From the NCBI RefSeq assembly GCF_003334335.1, contig NZ_QOWQ01000012.1: 64,000 nucleotides of DNA; one strand, given 5' to 3'. Shown here in pieces: positions 1,081 through 53,566 of the stretch. Under the pieces are notes generated by a model. It searched no databases. It was not told the DNA's origin and saw nothing but the letters and a program-made list of their open reading frames with translations. Positions within the stretch are counted from its first letter, which is position 1; each line of letters opens with the position of its first letter. Made by a program: the position numbers and the translations under genes. This stretch comes from Escherichia coli (lineage in GTDB: Bacteria > Pseudomonadota > Gammaproteobacteria > Enterobacterales > Enterobacteriaceae).

Positions 1081-3526
<2,446 letters not shown>

Positions 3527-3567
3527 TGACCTCTGTACTTATAACAACAACGTAAGGTTATTGCGCT

Positions 3568-4017: not shown

Positions 4018-4713
4018 TTACCTCAACCCGGTTTTCTGCTTCATCGCTGCCATCACCGTCGGTTTATCGGCCAGATAATGATTCAAACCGTTGGCGCGTA
4101 AATTACATGCCGCACAATGACCGCAACCGTCGCCTTTAAAGCCGTTATAGCAGGTCAACGTTTCGTTACGGACTAAATCCAGTTTGCCGTAATAATCTGC
4201 CAGCGCCCAGGTTTCCGCTTTATCAATCCACATCAGCGGCGTTTCAAAACGAATATCTTTCGCCATGCCCAAACTGACGGCATGGTTTAGTGCTTTCACA
4301 AACTCATCGCGGCAATCCGGGTAGCCGGAGAAATCCGTTTCGCAGACGCCAGTAATTACGGCTTCTGCTTTTACCTGATACGCATATATTGCCGCCAGCG
4401 TCAGGAACAAAATATTACGCCCTGGGACAAACGTATTCGGGATACCATCGGCTTCAGGTTCATAATCAGGCACCGGAATGCTGTCACGCGTCAGGCTACT
4501 GACCGCCAGCTCGTTGAGCAGGGTGACATCCAGCACCTTATGCGCGCGTGCCCCCAGTTTCAGCGCCAGTTCGCGTGCCACGTCGATTTCTGCGCGATGC
4601 CGCTGACCGTAATCGAACGTCACGCAATGGACTTCATCATATTGTTGTAATGCCTGCACCAGACAGGTGGTGGAATCCTGACCTCCACTGAACACAACGA
4701 CAGCACGTTTCAT
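4018..4713 (-). CDS. queC: 7-cyano-7-deazaguanine synthase (queuosine biosynthesis)
   Basis: 231 aa; [20 protein letters not shown]-loop ATPase motif (SGGxDS) and C-terminal Zn-binding cysteines (CGHCAAC). Confidence 0.95.
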
Positions 4714-4777
4714 AGATAATCCTGCTTGAACAATAAAAGCGTTATGGTAACGCCTGCGATTAACCCGGACCAGCTAT

Positions 4778-6478
4778 TCATTGCGATGGCGCGGGAAGCC
4801 AGGCTTCGGTAAATTCAAACCAGCCGCGCGGTGTCAGTCGCACACCGTTCACGCCGGGAGGGGCACTAATGCGATAGTGATAGTTGAACAGCGGCGTCAG
4901 CGTCGCATCTGTCATTAACTGGCTAAAAACCGCTTTCAGGGCATTAAATCGGTTTTCTTCATCAGGCATTATTTGCACGGCATCCAGTGTCGATTGTAGA
5001 TGTGCGTATGCTGGAGCGTCGAAAACATGTGGCCACAGCGGATCGCAGCGCAGCCATTGCTCCAGAGTATATTCCGGTGCTTCGCCAATTAATCTGTCGC
5101 CCATCATGAGGTCTGCGTGTGCCTGTAGGGTCGTGTCGTCCCAGTTTTTTGCGTTATGAAAAATAATTGTGAGTTCACAGCCTTCCGCTGCCAGTGTCGC
5201 CTGTAGGCGTTCTGCCATGGTATGAAGTTCTATCGGTAGGTGATAAACCAGCGTCAAGGTTTTCGGTAGTTTGACTTCATCCGGTACCTGCCAATGCGGA
5301 ATAGTCCAGCCTGGCAGTAATGCATGACTGGCGGTGATCAGGTTTTCTCCGACTTCTAACGTTTGTAATAAACCGGATTGATGAATAATGGAGATCACTT
5401 TTCGCGCCTGCCAGAGGGAGAGTCGGGGACTTTTGCGCAACGTCAAATAGCAAAAACCTAAACTGATGCCGCTACTGACCTGGCTGACCCGTTGCAGCTC
5501 CTCCGGTTTGCCGATGGTGATTTGCACGGGATGCCGACAACTGGTTCCCAAATCTTTTTCGAAAAGCGGCGGAGTTATCCAGTACTCAACCGCTTTAAGC
5601 AGCGGATGACGTAAATGGTAATAATCATGGCTTTCCAGGCGCACCAGCTCTGCTGTGAATTGTGTTAAGCGAAAAGGACCCGTGCCGATCAGTGGGAATT
5701 GCGGATGCGCCAGATGGCTGCAATAGCTCGCCAGCCGGTGCGCAAGCCAGTAATCAGGGCGATGTAAAAAGAAGGTCAGACACTGCGGATGGGTGACTTC
5801 AATACGCTTCACGCTAATAAATAATTGATCCAGTGCTGGCAGTTGTAACAGCATCAATAATCGCTGGTGTAAGTGTGAGGCTTTTACTGCATCGCCGTTA
5901 TGCCAGTGTAGGGTTGAACGAAGATAAAAGTCCCAGCGTAACCCGTCAGTAGAGGTTTCCCAGTGATGCGCTAAATCGCCAATCGGGCGCTGAGTATTAT
6001 TATCGAAGCGGGTCAGGCCGGAAAATATCTGCCCGGCGAGATGCTGCTCGGCACGGCCGGGCAAAAAGCCTGGTTGTAGCGGTTCGAGCGGGCGATAGTA
6101 GGGAATACGCAACGTGGGTGTATCGTTTTGCCATTGTCCGCCCATAAACGGCTGTAACAGAGTGCGCAGCTCACCTGGGGCCAGTTGCGCCAGCTCCAGC
6201 ACATCTTGCTGCTTTCCGGTTTCCAGTGCCTGTTCCATCATCGCATTGCGTAGCGATTCCGGCGTGACCAGAAAGCGTAATTGTCCGCGCTTTCCGCGTC
6301 CTGACTGCGCCTGCCACTCCAGCCATCCCGCCTCCTGTGCCTGACGCAACAGCGTACGAACATGGCGTTCGCTGCAAAAACAGCGTTCGGCCAGTTCGCT
6401 GACGGTGACGGTTTGCGGCTTTCCGGCGGAAGGTTGCCACAGACGTTGATACTGGTTAAGACGGTTGAGCAATCGCAT
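4778..6478 (-). CDS. ybaE: SgrR-like regulator/solute-binding-domain protein (N-terminal HTH, SBP family-5-like C-terminus)
   Basis: Track ORF 4778..6493 (571 aa); I prefer the internal ATG at 6478 (MRLLNRLNQYQRLWQ..., 566 aa), the length I recall for YbaE. Confidence 0.75.
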   Translation of the reverse strand: MRLLNRLNQYQRLWQPSAGKPQTVTVSELAERCFCSERHVRTLLRQAQEAGWLEWQAQSGRGKRGQLRFLVTPESLRNAMMEQALETGKQQDVLELAQLAPGELRTLLQPFMGGQWQNDTPTLRIPYYRPLEPLQPGFLPGRAEQHLAGQIFSGLTRFDNNTQRPIGDLAHHWETSTDGLRWDFYLRSTLHWHNGDAVKASHLHQRLLMLLQLPALDQLFISVKRIEVTHPQCLTFFLHRPDYWLAHRLASYCSHLAHPQFPLIGTGPFRLTQFTAELVRLESHDYYHLRHPLLKAVEYWITPPLFEKDLGTSCRHPVQITIGKPEELQRVSQVSSGISLGFCYLTLRKSPRLSLWQARKVISIIHQSGLLQTLEVGENLITASHALLPGWTIPHWQVPDEVKLPKTLTLVYHLPIELHTMAERLQATLAAEGCELTIIFHNAKNWDDTTLQAHADLMMGDRLIGEAPEYTLEQWLRCDPLWPHVFDAPAYAHLQSTLDAVQIMPDEENRFNALKAVFSQLMTDATLTPLFNYHYRISAPPGVNGVRLTPRGWFEFTEAWLPAPSQ

Positions 6479-47383: not shown

Positions 47384-47725
47384 ATGAAACAGGCAACAAG
47401 AAAACCGACGACACCCGGAGATATTCTTCTCTATGAATATCTGGAACCGCTCGATTTGAAAATCAATGAGTTAGCAGAGTTGCTGCATGTTCATCGTAAT
47501 AGCGTCAGTGCACTGATCAATAACAATCGTAAACTCACTACTGAGATGGCATTTCGTCTGGCGAAAGTTTTTGATACCACAGTCGATTTTTGGCTAAACC
47601 TCCAGGCGGCGGTTGATCTTTGGGAAGTTGAAAACAACATGCGCACCCAGGAAGAATTGGGACGGATTGAAACAGTGGCTGAATATTTGGCACGCCGTGA
47701 AGAGCGTGCAAAAAAGGTCGCGTAA
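47384..47725 (+). CDS. ybaQ: XRE-family HTH protein, HigA-antitoxin-like (no partner toxin adjacent)
   Basis: Track ORF 131 aa; ATG at 47384 gives 113 aa MKQATRKPTTPGDILLYEYLEPLDLKINELAELLHVHRNSVSALINNNRKLTTEMAFRLAKVF (HTH_XRE). Confidence 0.8.
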   Translation: MKQATRKPTTPGDILLYEYLEPLDLKINELAELLHVHRNSVSALINNNRKLTTEMAFRLAKVFDTTVDFWLNLQAAVDLWEVENNMRTQEELGRIETVAEYLARREERAKKVA

Positions 47726-48040: not shown

Positions 48041-50545
48041 TTATTCCTTCGGTTTAAACCGCAGCAACCGGTTGGCGTTACTCACTACGGTAATCGACGA
48101 GAGCGCCATTGCCGCTCCGGCAACTACCGGGTTAAGCAGTGTTCCAGTGAACGGCCACAAAATACCGGCGGCGACCGGAATACCGATACTGTTGTAGATA
48201 AACGCACCGAGCAGGTTCTGCTTCATGTTGTGCAGCGTTGCGCGGGAAATAGCGAGCGCATCCGCAACGCCCATCAGGCTATGGCGCATCAGGGTAATCG
48301 CCGCGGTTTCAATGGCAACATCACTGCCGCCACCCATCGCAATGCCGACATCCGCCTGAGCCAGCGCTGGCGCGTCGTTAATGCCGTCGCCCACCATTGC
48401 CACCTGACGTCCTTCACTTTGCAGATGTTTGATCGCTTCGGCTTTACCGTCCGGCAGCACCCCGGCGATCACCTCATCAATCCCTGCTTCTTTGGCGATC
48501 GCATTGGCGGTGGTTGGGTTATCCCCGGTCAACATCACCAGACGATATCCCGCTTTATGCAGGCGTTGCAGCGCCGCCACGCTATCACTACGCAACGGAT
48601 CGCGTACTGCCAGCAGGGCTACCGCTTTCCCGTCAACCGCCAGCAGCACAGGCGTTGCCCCTTGCGATGCCTGAGCAGTAATCTCCGCTTCGATAGCTTT
48701 GGTACCAACCTGTTGCTCATTTAACAGCGCCTGATTGCCCAGCAATAACGCATGACCTTCAGCTTCACCGCTCACGCCCAGCCCGCGCAATGTGCGGAAA
48801 CCGTTGACCTGCGGTAGCTGCATATCACCTGCTTTATCGAGGATCGCTCGTGCCAGCGGATGGCTGGAACCTTGCTCCAGTGCCGCCGCCAGACGCAATG
48901 CCTGCGCTTCATCAACATCAGCAAATGTTTTCACTGCGACAACCTGCGGCTTCCCTTCAGTCAGCGTCCCGGTTTTATCGAACACTACAGTGTCGAGTGT
49001 ACTGGCGCGTTGCAGCGCGTCAGCGTCCCGCACCAGCACGCCAAACTCAGCCGCCCGCCCGACGCCGGAAATAATCGACATCGGCGTCGCCAGCCCCAGC
49101 GCACACGGACAGGCAATAATCAGTACCGTGGTGGCAATCACCAGGGTATAGACAATCTGCGGTGCCGGACCAAAGAAATACCAGATTGCCGCACTGACAA
49201 GCGCAATAACCACCACTACCGGCACAAATACGGCTGAGATTTTATCCGCCAGCTGACCGATTTCTGGCTTGCTGCTCTGGGCCTGGCGCACCATGCGAAT
49301 GATTCGTGACAGCGTAGTATGGCTGCCAACCGCACTGGCACGAAACAGCACACTGCCGTCCTGTACCACTGTCCCGGCATGGACGCTATCGCCTTCGCCT
49401 TTTTGCTGCGGGATTGGTTCGCCCGTCAGCATCGCTTCATCCAGCCATGCTTCGCCCTGGGTAATCTCGCCATCTACCGGCACGCGATCGCCGGTCGTCA
49501 GGCGCAGCAACATACCTGGCTGCACTTCTGCCAGAGGCACGCTTTTTTCACCTTCGTCAGTAACCAGGCGTGCCGTCGGCGGGGTTAAATCGAGTAACTT
49601 TTCCAGCGCCTTAGAAGAACGCTGGCGTGCGCGCGCTTCCAGCATATGGCCGAGATTGATCAGACCGATAATCATCGCGCTGGCTTCGTAATAAAGATGT
49701 CGCGCTTCCATCGGGAACCACTGCGGCCACAGGTTGACGCTCATCGAATAGAGCCACGCCACGCCAGTACCCAGCGCCACCAGCGTATCCATCGTCGCCG
49801 CACCGTTCAGCAGGCTTTTCCATGCACTGCGGTAAAAATGGCCGCCGGCGAAAACCATCACTGCCAGGGTTATCAGGCCGATAACCAACCACAGGCTGCG
49901 GTTGTCAGCGGTGACCATCATGTTATCGCCGATCATCCCCCAGACCATCACCGGGATACCCACCGCCAGTGCGACAATTGCCTGCCAGCGGAAGCGCTTC
50001 ATCGTAGCGACGGCGGTTTCTTGCTGGCGCTCGCGGCGTTTAGCGTCATCTTCAATCGCTTCCGCGCCGTAGCCCGCTTTTTCCACCGCCTGCACTAAAT
50101 CTTGTGGGGAGGCACTGCCCATCACCAGCGCAGTACGCTCCGCCAGGTTTACCCGTGCCTGAGTGACGCCCGGTACGCTTTGCAGCGCATTTTGTACGCG
50201 GGTGACACAGCTGGCGCAGCTCATGCCGCTCAGCAGCAACTGCTGGCTGTCATCGTCATCGGCGGTCGCTGCCGGAAGCGCCTCAGAAACCGCTGTCAGT
50301 GCTTCCGACGGGATTGATGACTCCGCCAGCGGTTTAGCCTTTGGGTGGCTTACAGATGCGTCATAACCCGCTTGTTTGATGGTTTCGATCAGCTGTTCTG
50401 CACTGGCAGTCCCGGTAACGTGCGCTTCAGTGATAGACACATCCGCCTGCTCAACATCCGGACGCTGTTCAAGACTTTCTTTCACGCGTTTAACGCAGTG
50501 ACCGCAGGACAGGCCGTCCAGGGTCAGGTCGATAGTTTGTGACAT
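48041..50545 (-). CDS. copA: Cu(I)-translocating P1B-type ATPase CopA
   Basis: 834 aa; two N-terminal CxxC metal-binding domains (GLSCGHC, GMSCASC), CPC transmembrane motif, DKTGT phosphorylation site. Confidence 0.95.
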
Positions 50546-50584
50546 AAAACACTCCTTTAAGACAGTTTTGACTGGCTGTGATAA

Positions 50585-50615
50585 AGGTTAAACCTTCCAG
50601 CAAGGGGAAGGTCAA
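50585..50615 (-). promoter_or_regulatory. copA promoter with CueR (MerR-type) operator in a 19-bp spacer
   Basis: Minus strand reads TTGACC (-35, 50610-50615), 19-nt spacer containing the dyad CCTTCC-N7-GGAAGG (50593-50611), then TAACCT (-10, 50585-50590), ~40 bp upstream of the copA ATG at 50545. Confidence 0.8.
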
Positions 50616-50806
50616 GAAATTAATAAACCAGGCGGGTAAAAGTCCGTAAAGATTAAAAAATCGGCTCGATTTGCATCAGGATTAGACATTTATCTCTTTG
50701 TTTTCCTGTAGTTAAGTTGCGGGTGCTAAGTTAAATCAGGATGCCTGAAAATCGGCACCGGGGTGAGGAATTACCTCCCGCATCTATAAAAAGGAGTTAA
50801 CAAAAG

Positions 50807-51739
50807 ATGTTAGATGCAAACAAATTACAGCAGGCAGTGGATCAGGCTTACACCCAATTTCACTCACTTAACGGCGGACAAAATGCCGATTACATTCCCT
50901 TTCTGGCGAATGTACCAGGTCAACTGGCGGCAGTGGCTATCGTGACCTGCGATGGCAACGTCTATAGTGCGGGTGACAGTGATTACCGCTTTGCACTGGA
51001 ATCCATCTCGAAAGTCTGTACGTTAGCCCTTGCGTTAGAAGATGTCGGCCCGCAGGCGGTACAGGACAAAATTGGCGCTGACCCGACCGGATTGCCCTTT
51101 AACTCAGTTATCGCCTTAGAGTTGCATGGCGGCAAACCGCTTTCGCCACTGGTAAATGCTGGCGCTATTGCCACCACCAGCCTGATTAACGCTGAAAATG
51201 TTGAACAACGCTGGCAGCGAATTTTACATATCCAACAGCAACTGGCTGGCGAGCAGGTAGCGCTCTCTGACGAAGTCAACCAGTCGGAACAAACAACCAA
51301 CTTCCATAACCGGGCCATAGCCTGGCTGCTGTACTCCGCCGGATATCTCTATTGTGATGCAATGGAAGCCTGTGACGTGTATACCCGTCAGTGCTCCACG
51401 CTCCTCAATACTATTGAACTGGCAACGCTTGGCGCGACGCTGGCGGCAGGTGGTGTGAATCCGTTGACGCATAAACGCGTTCTTCAGGCCGACAACGTGC
51501 CGTACATTCTGGCCGAAATGATGATGGAAGGGCTGTATGGTCGCTCCGGTGACTGGGCGTATCGTGTTGGTTTACCGGGCAAAAGCGGTGTAGGTGGCGG
51601 TATTCTGGCGGTCGTCCCTGGAGTGATGGGAATTGCCGCGTTCTCACCACCGCTGGACGAAGATGGCAACAGTGTTCGCGGTCAAAAAATGGTGGCATCG
51701 GTCGCTAAGCAACTCGGCTATAACGTGTTTAAGGGCTGA
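50807..51739 (+). CDS. glsA: Glutaminase 1
   Basis: 310 aa; MLDANKLQQAVDQAYTQFHSLNGGQNADYIPFLANVPGQLAAVAIVTCDGNVYSAGD (serine-dependent glutaminase family). Confidence 0.9.
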   Translation: MLDANKLQQAVDQAYTQFHSLNGGQNADYIPFLANVPGQLAAVAIVTCDGNVYSAGDSDYRFALESISKVCTLALALEDVGPQAVQDKIGADPTGLPFNSVIALELHGGKPLSPLVNAGAIATTSLINAENVEQRWQRILHIQQQLAGEQVALSDEVNQSEQTTNFHNRAIAWLLYSAGYLYCDAMEACDVYTRQCSTLLNTIELATLGATLAAGGVNPLTHKRVLQADNVPYILAEMMMEGLYGRSGDWAYRVGLPGKSGVGGGILAVVPGVMGIAAFSPPLDEDGNSVRGQKMVASVAKQLGYNVFKG

Positions 51740-51741
51740 TC

Positions 51742-53034
51742 ATGATGAACACGGAAGGTAATAACGGTAACAAACCTCTCGGTCTATGGAACGTCGTTTC
51801 CATCGGCATTGGGGCAATGGTGGGGGCGGGGATCTTCGCGCTGCTGGGGCAGGCTGCATTGCTAATGGAAGCCTCGACCTGGGTCGCCTTTGCTTTTGGC
51901 GGTATTGTGGCGATGTTTTCCGGTTATGCCTATGCGCGTCTGGGGGCGAGCTATCCCAGCAATGGCGGCATTATCGACTTCTTTCGTCGCGGATTAGGCA
52001 ACGGCGTCTTTTCGCTGGCGCTCTCGTTACTGTACCTGTTGACGCTGGCGGTGAGCATCGCCATGGTCGCCCGTGCTTTTGGCGCTTATGCCGTGCAGTT
52101 TTTGCATGAAGGCAGCCAGGAGGAGCACCTTATTTTGCTCTACGCGTTGGGGATCATTGCGGTGATGACGCTTTTCAACTCCTTAAGCAACCATGCGGTA
52201 GGGCGGCTGGAAGTGATCCTCGTCGGCATTAAAATGATGATCCTGTTATTGCTGATTATTGCCGGTGTCTGGTCGCTGCAACCGGCGCATATTTCCGTCT
52301 CTGCGCCCCCCAGCTCCGGTGCGTTCTTCTCCTGTATTGGGATAACTTTCCTTGCCTATGCGGGCTTTGGCATGATGGCGAACGCGGCGGATAAAGTGAA
52401 AGATCCGCAGGTCATTATGCCACGGGCGTTTCTGGTGGCGATTGGCGTTACCACGTTGCTTTATATCTCGCTGGCACTGGTTTTGCTTAGCGATGTATCG
52501 GCATTAGAGTTAGAAAAATATGCCGATACCGCCGTAGCGCAGGCTGCTTCTCCGCTGCTCGGGCATGTGGGTTATGTGATCGTCGTCATCGGCGCTTTAC
52601 TGGCGACGGCTTCAGCCATTAACGCGAACCTGTTCGCCGTGTTTAACATCATGGACAACATGGGCAGCGAACGCGAACTGCCGAAGCTAATGAATAAATC
52701 CCTGTGGCGGCAGAGTACCTGGGGCAACATTATTGTCGTGGTGTTGATTATGCTGATGACGGCGGCACTGAATTTAGGCTCACTCGCCAGCGTTGCCAGC
52801 GCCACCTTTTTGATTTGCTACCTGGCGGTGTTTGTGGTGGCGATCCGCCTGCGTCATGATATTCACGCCTCGTTGCCGATTCTTATCGTTGGTACGTTGG
52901 TGATGTTGTTGGTGATCGTTGGCTTTATCTACAGTCTGTGGTCCCAGGGTAGCCGTGCGTTGATATGGATTATTGGCTCACTCTTACTCAGCCTTATTGT
53001 GGCAATGGTCATGAAGCGCAATAAAACCGTATAA
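51742..53034 (+). CDS. ybaT: APC-superfamily amino-acid transporter YbaT
   Basis: 430 aa, 12 predicted TM segments; starts 3 nt after the glsA stop, so probably an operon. Confidence 0.85.
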   Translation: MMNTEGNNGNKPLGLWNVVSIGIGAMVGAGIFALLGQAALLMEASTWVAFAFGGIVAMFSGYAYARLGASYPSNGGIIDFFRRGLGNGVFSLALSLLYLLTLAVSIAMVARAFGAYAVQFLHEGSQEEHLILLYALGIIAVMTLFNSLSNHAVGRLEVILVGIKMMILLLLIIAGVWSLQPAHISVSAPPSSGAFFSCIGITFLAYAGFGMMANAADKVKDPQVIMPRAFLVAIGVTTLLYISLALVLLSDVSALELEKYADTAVAQAASPLLGHVGYVIVVIGALLATASAINANLFAVFNIMDNMGSERELPKLMNKSLWRQSTWGNIIVVVLIMLMTAALNLGSLASVASATFLICYLAVFVVAIRLRHDIHASLPILIVGTLVMLLVIVGFIYSLWSQGSRALIWIIGSLLLSLIVAMVMKRNKTV

Positions 53035-53158
53035 CATCTCTCTGTGCGCAGTACTTCCTGTATTATTGTGGTGGCGGTCGATATTCGCACTGGCAAAAAA
53101 ACGTGCTTGAATATCTGTTGAAACCCTTTAACAAAGCACAGGAGGCGTTGCGCGAACG

Positions 53159-53566
53159 ATGAACATCAGCGATGTAGCAAAAATTACCGGCCTGACCAGC
53201 AAAGCCATTCGCTTCTATGAAGAGAAGGGGCTGGTGACGCCGCCGATGCGCAGCGAAAACGGTTATCGCACCTACACGCAGCAGCATCTCAACGAACTGA
53301 CCTTACTGCGCCAGGCACGGCAGGTGGGCTTTAACCTGGAAGAGAGCGGCGAGCTGGTGAATCTGTTTAACGACCCGCAGCGGCACAGCGCCGACGTCAA
53401 ACGGCGCACGCTGGAGAAGGTGGCGGAGATCGAACGACACATTGAGGAGCTGCAATCCATGCGCGACCAGCTGCTGGCACTGGCGAATGCCTGCCCTGGC
53501 GATGACAGCGCCGACTGCCCGATTATCGAAAATCTCTCCGGCTGCTGTCATCATCGGGCAGGGTGA
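53159..53566 (+). CDS. cueR: MerR-family Cu(I)-responsive regulator CueR
   Basis: 135 aa; [26 protein letters not shown] (MerR HTH); C-terminal metal-binding cysteines ([10 protein letters not shown]). Confidence 0.95.

Follow-up and report, generated by a model that had tools for sequence, protein, structure and literature searches.

The CueR-controlled copA promoter in an Escherichia coli contig: a known promoter with a 19-bp spacer, a conserved core and a possible role of that core in prophage attachment

Promoters activated by regulators of the MerR family share a particular geometry, in which the operator dyad starts at the edge of the -35 hexamer and fills an over-long spacer. Among them, PcopA and its regulator CueR belong to the best-characterised bacterial promoters and serve as a standard component of biosensors for copper and gold; a 19-nt spacer, as in PcopA, is 2 bp over the sigma-70 optimum. 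The Pmer promoter of Tn501 and Tn21 with MerR, and PzntA with ZntR, have in common with PcopA a spacer of 19-20 bp, a dyad running from the -35 edge through the spacer and activation by DNA distortion, and they differ from it in operator sequence and metal specificity. A further difference is that merR diverges from the operator through which it also regulates itself, whereas cueR of E. coli lies far off, without a copy of the operator upstream of it. The published CueR signal is ACCTTCCC-(5)-TGGAAGGT, and a 19-bp spacer is considered the hallmark of CueR/HmrR promoters; in Salmonella, copA and cueR form a divergon without ybaS and ybaT (PMC1526738). Cryo-EM of the CueR-RNAP-PcopA complex revealed that CueR bends the 19-bp spacer of PcopA (PMC8169799), the activation complexes having been built on PcopA positions -40 to +14. 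Metal-dependent bending and undertwisting of the spacer, together with repression by the apo-protein, are established for PcopA (PMC8169799; PDB entries).

The sequence analysed here is a 64,000-nt stretch of E. coli contig NZ_QOWQ01000012.1, hereafter referred to as the window. Attention was given to the 261-bp interval 50546-50806, which is the exact gap between the ATG of copA (50545) and the ATG of glsA (50807). Over 801 nt around the copA-glsA region, the window and E. coli K-12 MG1655 show 100% identity, and these surrounding 801 nt were found in 5,423 of 5,426 complete E. coli genomes. The gene order in RefSeq is ushA, ybaK, ybaP, ybaQ, copA(-), glsA(+), ybaT(+), a 98-nt pseudogene fragment, cueR(+), ybbJ, qmcA and fetAB, with the ATG of cueR overlapping the stop of the 98-nt gene remnant (RefSeq annotation). 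The initial annotation, made from the sequence alone, had located cueR at 53159-53566, 2.6 kb away behind glsA-ybaT; the coordinates agree with the annotated ones and the distance from the copA ATG to cueR is 2,614 bp, with glsA and ybaT in between. A search of 50200-51000 against Rfam (E<=1) gave no match, so that neither the leader nor the intergenic region shows a known RNA element. In other E. coli strains, ybaT is followed by a TolC-like gene and by a giant SiiEA/BapA-like adhesin gene. The features of the region are collected in Table 1.

Table 1. Position of genes and regulatory features in the window
Feature	Position	Strand	Basis
copA, Cu(I)-exporting P-type ATPase, regulated gene	48041-50545	-	ORF and RefSeq annotation
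copA promoter, -35 hexamer TTGACC	50610-50615	-	direct reading; unique-pattern match; 78/78 species
copA promoter, 19-nt spacer TTCCCCTTGCTGGAAGGTT	50591-50609	-	direct reading; 19 nt in 78/78 species
copA promoter, -10 hexamer TAACCT	50585-50590	-	direct reading; pattern match
CueR operator dyad ACCTTCC-N7-GGAAGGT, centre 50602	50592-50612	.	unique in window; equals published CueR signal
Predicted copA transcription start	50577-50579	-	inferred: 6-8 nt downstream of -10 hexamer
20-bp core CTTGACCTTCCCCTTGCTGG, attB of P2-family prophages in other E. coli strains (lead), empty in window	50597-50616	-	junctions
Putative CpxR-type direct repeat GTAAA-N5-GTAAA, perfect	50636-50650	+	sole window match, 0.13 expected
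glsA core promoter, sigma-S-like -10 gCTAAGTTaaa (TAAGTT 50727-50732), TSS ~50737	50724-50741	+	conservation; TSS converted from Seo et al.
ChIP-exo footprint of GadW and GadX upstream of ybaST, with RpoS bound as well	50732-50765	+	Seo et al. 2015, coordinates converted
glsA (ybaS), glutaminase A	50807-51739	+	ORF and RefSeq annotation
ybaT, APC permease	51742-53034	+	ORF and RefSeq annotation
glsA-ybaT, DNA parting copA from cueR	50807-53034	+	ORF and RefSeq annotation
cueR, MerR-family Cu(I) sensor	53159-53566	+	ORF, RefSeq annotation, PDB identity

On the minus strand, the initial annotation had read a promoter made of TTGACC, a 19-bp spacer and TAACCT, and a careful recount places it at exactly 50615-50585 with 19 nt between the hexamers. 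A single occurrence of TTGACC-N19-TAACCT was counted in the 64 kb, where 0.01 was expected, and its -10 hexamer agrees with the consensus at just 3 of 6 bases. The dyad first described as CCTTCC-N7-GGAAGG extends to arms of 7 bp, ACCTTCC at 50612-50606 and GGAAGGT at 50598-50592, and is the sole match in the window even when up to 2 mismatches are tolerated (0.13 expected). It had been described as lying inside the spacer: the dyad is indeed present, but it is not wholly inside, since its left arm takes the last 2 nt (with 6-bp arms) or 3 nt (with 7-bp arms) of the -35 hexamer. Similarly, the spacer length of 19 withstood the recount, while the proposed centring of the dyad between the -35 and -10 elements fails if taken literally, its centre (50602) being 2 bp upstream of that of the spacer (50600); this offset is invariant in 78 of 78 enterobacterial species (see below) and therefore belongs to the native geometry, which excludes a counting error. 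When 50300-51000 was scanned for sigma-70 promoters in the standard way, none was returned because only spacers of 16-18 bp were admitted. A prediction on both strands of 50546-50806 had been advised at the outset; made here with spacers of 15-21 bp, it found PcopA and no other promoter-like architecture in the 261 bp. A Shine-Dalgarno sequence, AGGAG, is present at 50556-50552 on the minus strand, and the predicted start would imply a copA leader of ~33 nt.

Comparison with the CueR consensus, also advised in the initial annotation, left no discrepancy: the operator at 50612-50592 matches exactly the published signal ACCTTCCC-(5)-TGGAAGGT (PMC1526738). Over its full 135 aa, the product of cueR in the window is identical to the crystallised E. 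coli protein (PDB 1Q05, 4WLW and 4WLS) and to CueR as present in the transcription-activation complexes solved by cryo-EM (6LDI, 7C17, 6XH7 and 6XH8). The sequence features of a promoter of the MerR family are found together at this locus, namely an over-long spacer, a dyad matching the CueR signal, an encoded Cu(I) sensor and a metal-efflux target, copA. The over-long-spacer architecture that MerR-family activators remodel, proposed from the sequence, is in accordance with the 19-bp spacer, the CueR signal and the cryo-EM of PcopA (PMC1526738, PMC8169799). We consider it practically certain that 50585-50615 is PcopA, the sigma-70 promoter of copA with its own CueR operator, on which CueR acts from 2.6 kb away. 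The sequence, spacing, uniqueness and conservation of the promoter as well as the identity of regulator and target were computed here, the Cu(I) dependence and the DNA distortion are taken from the literature and the start sites are inferred.

In the mechanism established for PcopA, the hexamers, being 19 bp apart, are 2 bp too far from each other and lie in the wrong helical phase to be used by RNA polymerase, and a CueR dimer, supplied in trans from the gene 2.6 kb off, sits on the dyad, which covers the end of the -35 hexamer and the greater part of the spacer. Apo-CueR, free of Cu(I), keeps the promoter in an inactive conformation; once Cu(I), Ag(I) or Au(I) is bound, CueR kinks and undertwists the spacer, realigning the hexamers and allowing copA to be transcribed. 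PcopA and CueR of K-12 MG1655 have the same sequence, hexamers, 19-bp spacer, dyad and regulator, with no difference. The feature is already known and corresponds to the rediscovery of a promoter that has been structurally solved in the reference strain.

The extent of constraint on this promoter was evaluated with the copA loci of 80 other species-level genomes of Enterobacteriaceae, which were fetched by their CopA protein (orthologues of 80-99% identity in the 80 loci) and are consequently unbiased towards the promoter. For the 78 usable upstream regions, the best dyad match alone was used as anchor and the other elements were then read at fixed offsets. The -35 TTGACC is present in 78/78 species and the spacing between the hexamers is 19 nt in all 78. 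The -10 hexamer follows TA[ACG][CG]CT (TAACCT in 53 species, TAAGCT in 11, TACCCT in 9, TAGGCT in 3 and TACGCT in 2), its positions 1, 2, 5 and 6 being invariant. Both 7-bp arms of the dyad are perfect in 74 of the 78. In ungapped alignment of these species, the mean fraction of the majority base reaches 0.96 over the 31-bp core versus 0.58 in both flanks (30 nt upstream, 26 nt downstream), and invariant columns amount to 19/31 in the core against 1/30 upstream and 0/26 downstream. Within the operator, the arms are 99.5% conserved compared with 87% for the central 7 nt, which is the pattern expected if a protein reads the arms and the centre has merely to be deformable. At a shorter evolutionary scale, a 41-nt core is identical in 5,392 of 5,416 E. 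coli genomes, while the surrounding 801 nt are at least 99% identical in just 1,527 of 5,423.

The position of cueR is far more variable than the promoter itself. It is directly divergent from copA in 39 of the 78 species, with a gap of 94-115 nt and a start codon ~9 nt upstream of the copA -35, and this divergon is the commonest layout outside Escherichia. In 17/78 species cueR lies within 6 kb of copA but is parted from it by other DNA, and in 18/78 it is absent within 6 kb of copA. Among the 78 species, glsA-ybaT separates the two genes only in Escherichia loci, four of which have a full-length glsA adjoining copA; a fifth, with a truncated glsA, is counted among the 17. The divergon of Salmonella and other enterobacteria has the same 31-bp promoter-operator core and the same regulator as E. 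coli, whereas Escherichia differs by the insertion of glsA-ybaT (2.2 kb), by a different sequence upstream of cueR and by a copA leader of 39 nt instead of 54-75. More generally, this leader is 54-75 nt long where cueR adjoins and mostly 29-41 nt where it does not, even within Citrobacter; since leader length tracks cueR adjacency, this suggests that the extra ~28 nt may house the divergent cueR promoter. Upstream of cueR in the window, no operator remnant was detected at up to 2 mismatches, and the sequence upstream of MG1655 cueR is unrelated to the ancestral one. An operator remnant at cueR, which would have pointed to autoregulation or to a duplication of the target by the glsA-ybaT insertion, was accordingly rejected.

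On the other side of the interval, acid-stress control of glsA was evaluated in relation to the GAD box, which has the 20-bp consensus TTAGGATTTTGTTATTTAAA. The initial annotation had advised searching for GadE sites upstream of glsA; against this consensus, the best match has 9 mismatches out of 20 and was equalled by 1986 of 2000 shuffles, and a GadE site at glsA was rejected. ybaST has no entry in the GadE ChIP-exo table of Seo et al., and no GAD box was recognised; GadW, GadX and RpoS bind instead. For ybaST, Seo et al. 2015 (Supplementary Tables 2-3) give a single ChIP-exo site each for GadW and GadX, at 510790-510823 and with its centre at +11.5 relative to the TSS; RpoS is bound too. 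These positions were converted to the window by subtracting 460058, which assumes U00096.2 numbering, a choice of ours in line with the alternative numbering placing the site inside copA. At the place so predicted, the sequence has gCTAAGTTaaa, which is invariant in the genus and resembles a sigma-S-type -10 (C at -13, TAnnnT), the occupancy by GadX, GadW and RpoS being known from the literature; the block TGCTAAGTTAAATCAGG does not vary among five Escherichia species. No recognisable -35 was found upstream of TAAGTT 50727-50732. According to PMC6250119, citing Petersen and Moller 2000, the ybaS promoter fragment extends from 159 to 49 bp upstream of the ATG, and the predicted glsA start (~50737) falls within it. 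The early proposal that the same 261 bp also hold the divergent glsA promoter thereby agrees with this fragment (PMC6250119) and with the ChIP-exo site and TSS (Seo et al.). The divergent promoters of copA and glsA are ~160 bp apart, and a 2024 review (PMC10903455) states that copper does not induce ybaST in direct association with CueR. The glsA promoter is therefore supported as a separate unit, which does not use the CueR site.

Between the two promoters lies a putative CpxR-type box, 20 nt upstream of the copA -35, with its centre at about -65 relative to the start of copA and about -94 relative to that of glsA. It is intact only in E. coli proper (2/78 loci) and is degenerate in E. albertii and E. 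whittamii, and it could for this reason be either a recent acquisition or a chance match. A genome-wide study of CpxR reported copA up and glsA down in cpx mutants, and it is from this one expression study (PMC9600279) that a function of the box may be proposed.

Genomes of other E. coli strains provided a lead, apart from the main finding, on a second use of the promoter core. Strain 24A16CRGN010 matched the window only from 50597 onward and has a ~34.6-kb prophage of the P2 family between glsA and copA, with genes for an integrase, a P2-type capsid, a GpO scaffold, Ogr/Delta and the tail sheath and tube. The 20-bp core CTTGACCTTCCCCTTGCTGG comprises the -35 hexamer and, of the CueR dyad, its left arm and its centre. 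In this strain, the glsA-side junction reads host …atttcTTGACCTTCCCCTTGCTGG / ggacaaag… phage and the copA-side junction reads phage …ttaaaatg / CTTGACCTTCCCCTTGCTGGAAGGTTTAACCT… host, the integrase gene being 280 bp from the former. The core copy borne by the phage regenerates a complete PcopA beside copA, while phage DNA replaces the host sequence upstream of the -35, CpxR box included, and a half-operator is left on the glsA side. The predicted attP is …TTAAAATG-CTTGACCTTCCCCTTGCTGG-GGACAAAG…. Among 5,426 E. coli genomes, 18 carry this junction. In six of them the phage arm is at least 98% identical to that of 24A16CRGN010 and in twelve it is ~86% identical, five of the latter being derivatives of one strain. 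A second variant, in strain H1827/12, shares the breakpoint, its integrase being 82% identical, and some of the prophage copies are clearly decayed. The features of a tyrosine-integrase attB are thus found together, with the core at both junctions, an adjoining integrase and an empty site in the window and in ~5,400 genomes. The attachment sites described for P2-family phages (P2 locI, WPhi, PhiD145 and 186) likewise have an adjoining tyrosine integrase, a 20-bp core repeated at the junctions and an intergenic target other than a tRNA gene (PMC3448106); the copA site differs from them in that its core consists of the -35 and the left half of a metalloregulator operator, and in that the host promoter is restored by the copy that the phage brings. 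No copA site figures in a survey of P2-like att sites (PMC3448106), and no report of the copA core as an att site was found in the literature searched, a scope outside which many subscription journals lie. Against 50,697 deposited phage records, the predicted attP gave no megablast match and the closest phage integrase has only 53% identity.

Insertions at the same core could extend beyond E. coli. In four other genera, the DNA inserted between cueR and copA is bordered by the operator core in direct repeat: a 26-bp repeat around a 1.5 kb insert in locus L018, a ~29-bp repeat around a 2.2 kb insert in L066, a half-site adjoining cueR with a 4.9 kb insert in L051 (Enterobacter mori) and a decayed copy of the core in L068. 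A 30-residue remnant of the C-terminus of the same integrase was found by tblastn beside the cueR-side half-site of L051, the only locus to show one. A search with NCBIfam returned no recombinase in the inserts of L018, L066 and L051, giving only weak UmoC-like and VasI-like matches, and no remnant core survives next to glsA-ybaT in Escherichia. Altogether, we see roughly even chances for a joint reading in which CTTGACCTTCCCCTTGCTGG would be the dedicated attB core of an undescribed lineage of P2-family tyrosine integrases, integration would rebuild a CueR-controlled PcopA and swap all that lies upstream of the -35, including the CpxR box, for phage DNA, and repeated insertion would have moved cueR away from copA in several lineages of enterobacteria, the arrival of glsA-ybaT in Escherichia being possibly one such event. 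According to the same reading, CueR and the integrase would compete for one site because CueR occupies the DNA with or without copper.

The attribution of the site to CueR and PcopA has to be confronted with other readings of the same bases. All MerR-family metal sensors use dyads in spacers of 19-20 bp, and the HmrR- and GolS-type signals are nearly identical to that of CueR (PMC1526738), which could leave room for another member of the family (ZntR, SoxR or a GolS-like paralogue) as the protein served by the dyad. This is nevertheless extremely unlikely for an operator which equals the CueR signal exactly, controls a Cu(I) pump, has CueR encoded at the same locus and directly divergent from it in 39/78 species, and for which complexes of CueR with PcopA have been solved. 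The empty result of the standard promoter scan and a -10 with only 3/6 consensus bases might even evoke the fortuitous meeting of a sigma-70-like pattern and an inverted repeat, with no regulatory role. The probability of such a coincidence is negligible when confronted with an expected count of 0.01, with a spacing and arms constant over 78 species whose flanks diverge, and with extensive published biochemistry and structure; the conservation data had already refuted it.

Two further readings concern what else the site might do. The conservation of the 20-31 bp core could be partly owed to an attB role and not to the binding of CueR and RNA polymerase alone, considering the identical 20-bp core in P2-family prophages of 18 E. 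coli genomes with two integrase variants (82% identical), the operator-core repeats flanking inserts in four other genera, one with an integrase remnant, and the likewise invariant C directly before the -35, a base that belongs to the att core. Phages, however, adopt conserved host sequences as att sites and do not cause their conservation, occupancy is rare (0.3%) and the conserved block runs past the att core, through the right arm and the -10, all of which makes this contribution highly improbable. It has also to be considered whether the dyad is a bidirectional operator that drives the divergent glsA-ybaT as well, thereby explaining the copper induction of ybaST. PMC9628877 describes ybaST as copper-induced and needed for copper tolerance, an early comparative study included ybaS-ybaT-cueR in the CueR regulon (PMC1526738), and 39 other species carry the same operator between divergent copA and cueR. 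A shared operator remains improbable, as the dyad centre is ~135 bp upstream of the derived ybaS TSS and outside the 159-49 bp fragment, no second promoter with a 19-bp spacer is present on the plus strand, and the review PMC10903455 states that CueR is not directly associated with ybaST regulation. The interval is thus best described as PcopA with its own CueR operator, next to an independent glsA promoter.

This study illustrates that a reading of the sequence made without tools recovered PcopA accurately, and the cross-species footprint now shows which of its bases are constrained. Its side results bear on the organisation of copper resistance in Enterobacteriaceae: site-specific insertion at the operator is a possible reason for the remote position of cueR in E. 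coli, the gene being adjacent to copA in most relatives, and the doubling of the PcopA promoter and operator as a phage att site could be a modestly useful addition. It opens the questions of whether lysogeny may rewire the control of copA by copper and envelope stress, and whether a bound metalloregulator may protect an att site.

In E. coli 24A16CRGN010, a P2-family prophage of about 34.6 kb carries at both of its ends the 20-bp core CTTGACCTTCCCCTTGCTGG, which comprises the -35 element of the CueR-controlled copA promoter (PcopA) and the left half of its CueR operator. The corresponding site is empty in the window, and a breakpoint at this core is common to 18 of the 5,426 complete E. coli genomes, among which two integrase variants, 82% identical to each other, were distinguished. 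As read from these junctions, PcopA is restored upon prophage integration, but the region upstream of it is swapped out. No matching attP was found among deposited phages, nor any description of this attachment site in the literature searched. In the annotation of 24A16CRGN010, glsA is a pseudogene with an internal stop.

Coordinates of the features around copA in the window and in the compared loci
Feature	Sequence	Position	Strand	Remark
Attachment core	window	50597-50616		
Perfect CpxR-type box	window	50636-50650	+	GTAAA-N5-GTAAA, 20 nt upstream of copA -35
CCCAAAG	window	50339-50345	-	register C_CCA_AAG; copA nt 201-207
ybaQ	window	~47384-47725	+	
Frameshifted gene remnant, 98 nt	window	53065-53162	+	RefSeq annotation, between ybaT and cueR
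glsA pseudogene	L082 (E. coli 24A16CRGN010)	4211-5143		
Prophage-associated core sites	L083 (prophage-bearing E. coli)	480-505; 35097-35130		
Prophage-associated core site	L084 (E. coli)	3540-3565		
Core copies	L018 (Citrobacter amalonaticus)	4378; 5929		
Core copies	L066 (Enterobacteriaceae MAG)	3733; 5912		
Core copies	L051 (Enterobacter mori)	1012; 5902		
Integrase remnant	L051 (E. mori)	1130-1219		
Core copies	L068 (Pseudescherichia vulneris)	2286; 5912		

The CpxR-type box upstream of copA is intact in E. coli proper only; its counterparts in E. albertii and E. whittamii are degenerate. Both copA and glsA are listed among Cpx-responsive genes (PMC9600279). Within copA, a presence check located CCCAAAG at codons 67-69, which is the reported slippery site where programmed -1 frameshifting yields the short CopA(Z) chaperone. 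Just downstream of the gene, ybaQ is annotated as a HigA-family antitoxin, and the RefSeq record annotates no partner toxin beside it.

Between ybaT and cueR, the stop of the short gene remnant overlaps the cueR ATG (ATGA). Other E. coli strains (e.g. L082 6776-8504) carry a TolC-family gene and a SiiEA/BapA-like adhesin gene of about 19 kb after ybaT, and in three Escherichia loci (L002, L003 and L020) cueR is absent within 3.5 kb of ybaT. The MG1655 interval seems to be the deletion scar of a TolC/adhesin island.

The copA leader, measured from the -10 element to the ATG in the loci of other species-level genomes (L002-L081), is 54-75 nt long where cueR is directly divergent (39 species); in species lacking this arrangement it mostly spans 29-41 nt, a split which holds even inside Citrobacter. 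In the directly divergent species just ~9 nt separates the copA -35 element from the cueR ATG upstream of it, so the extra ~28 nt of the longer leader may carry the cueR promoter. An enterobacterial copA, accompanied by a perfect enterobacterial PcopA and encoding a CopA 87% identical to that of E. coli, is also present on a contig labelled Chryseobacterium sp. 18061 (L044, CACSKA010000001.1; also L041); this assembly is probably mislabelled or contaminated.

Inserts separating cueR from copA in four taxa are flanked by a second copy of the operator/promoter core, sometimes decaying, and a 30-amino-acid remnant of the same integrase family as that of the copA-core prophage persists in the E. 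mori insert. Together, the duplicated cores and this remnant point to the operator/promoter core between cueR and copA as a recurrent insertion hot spot.
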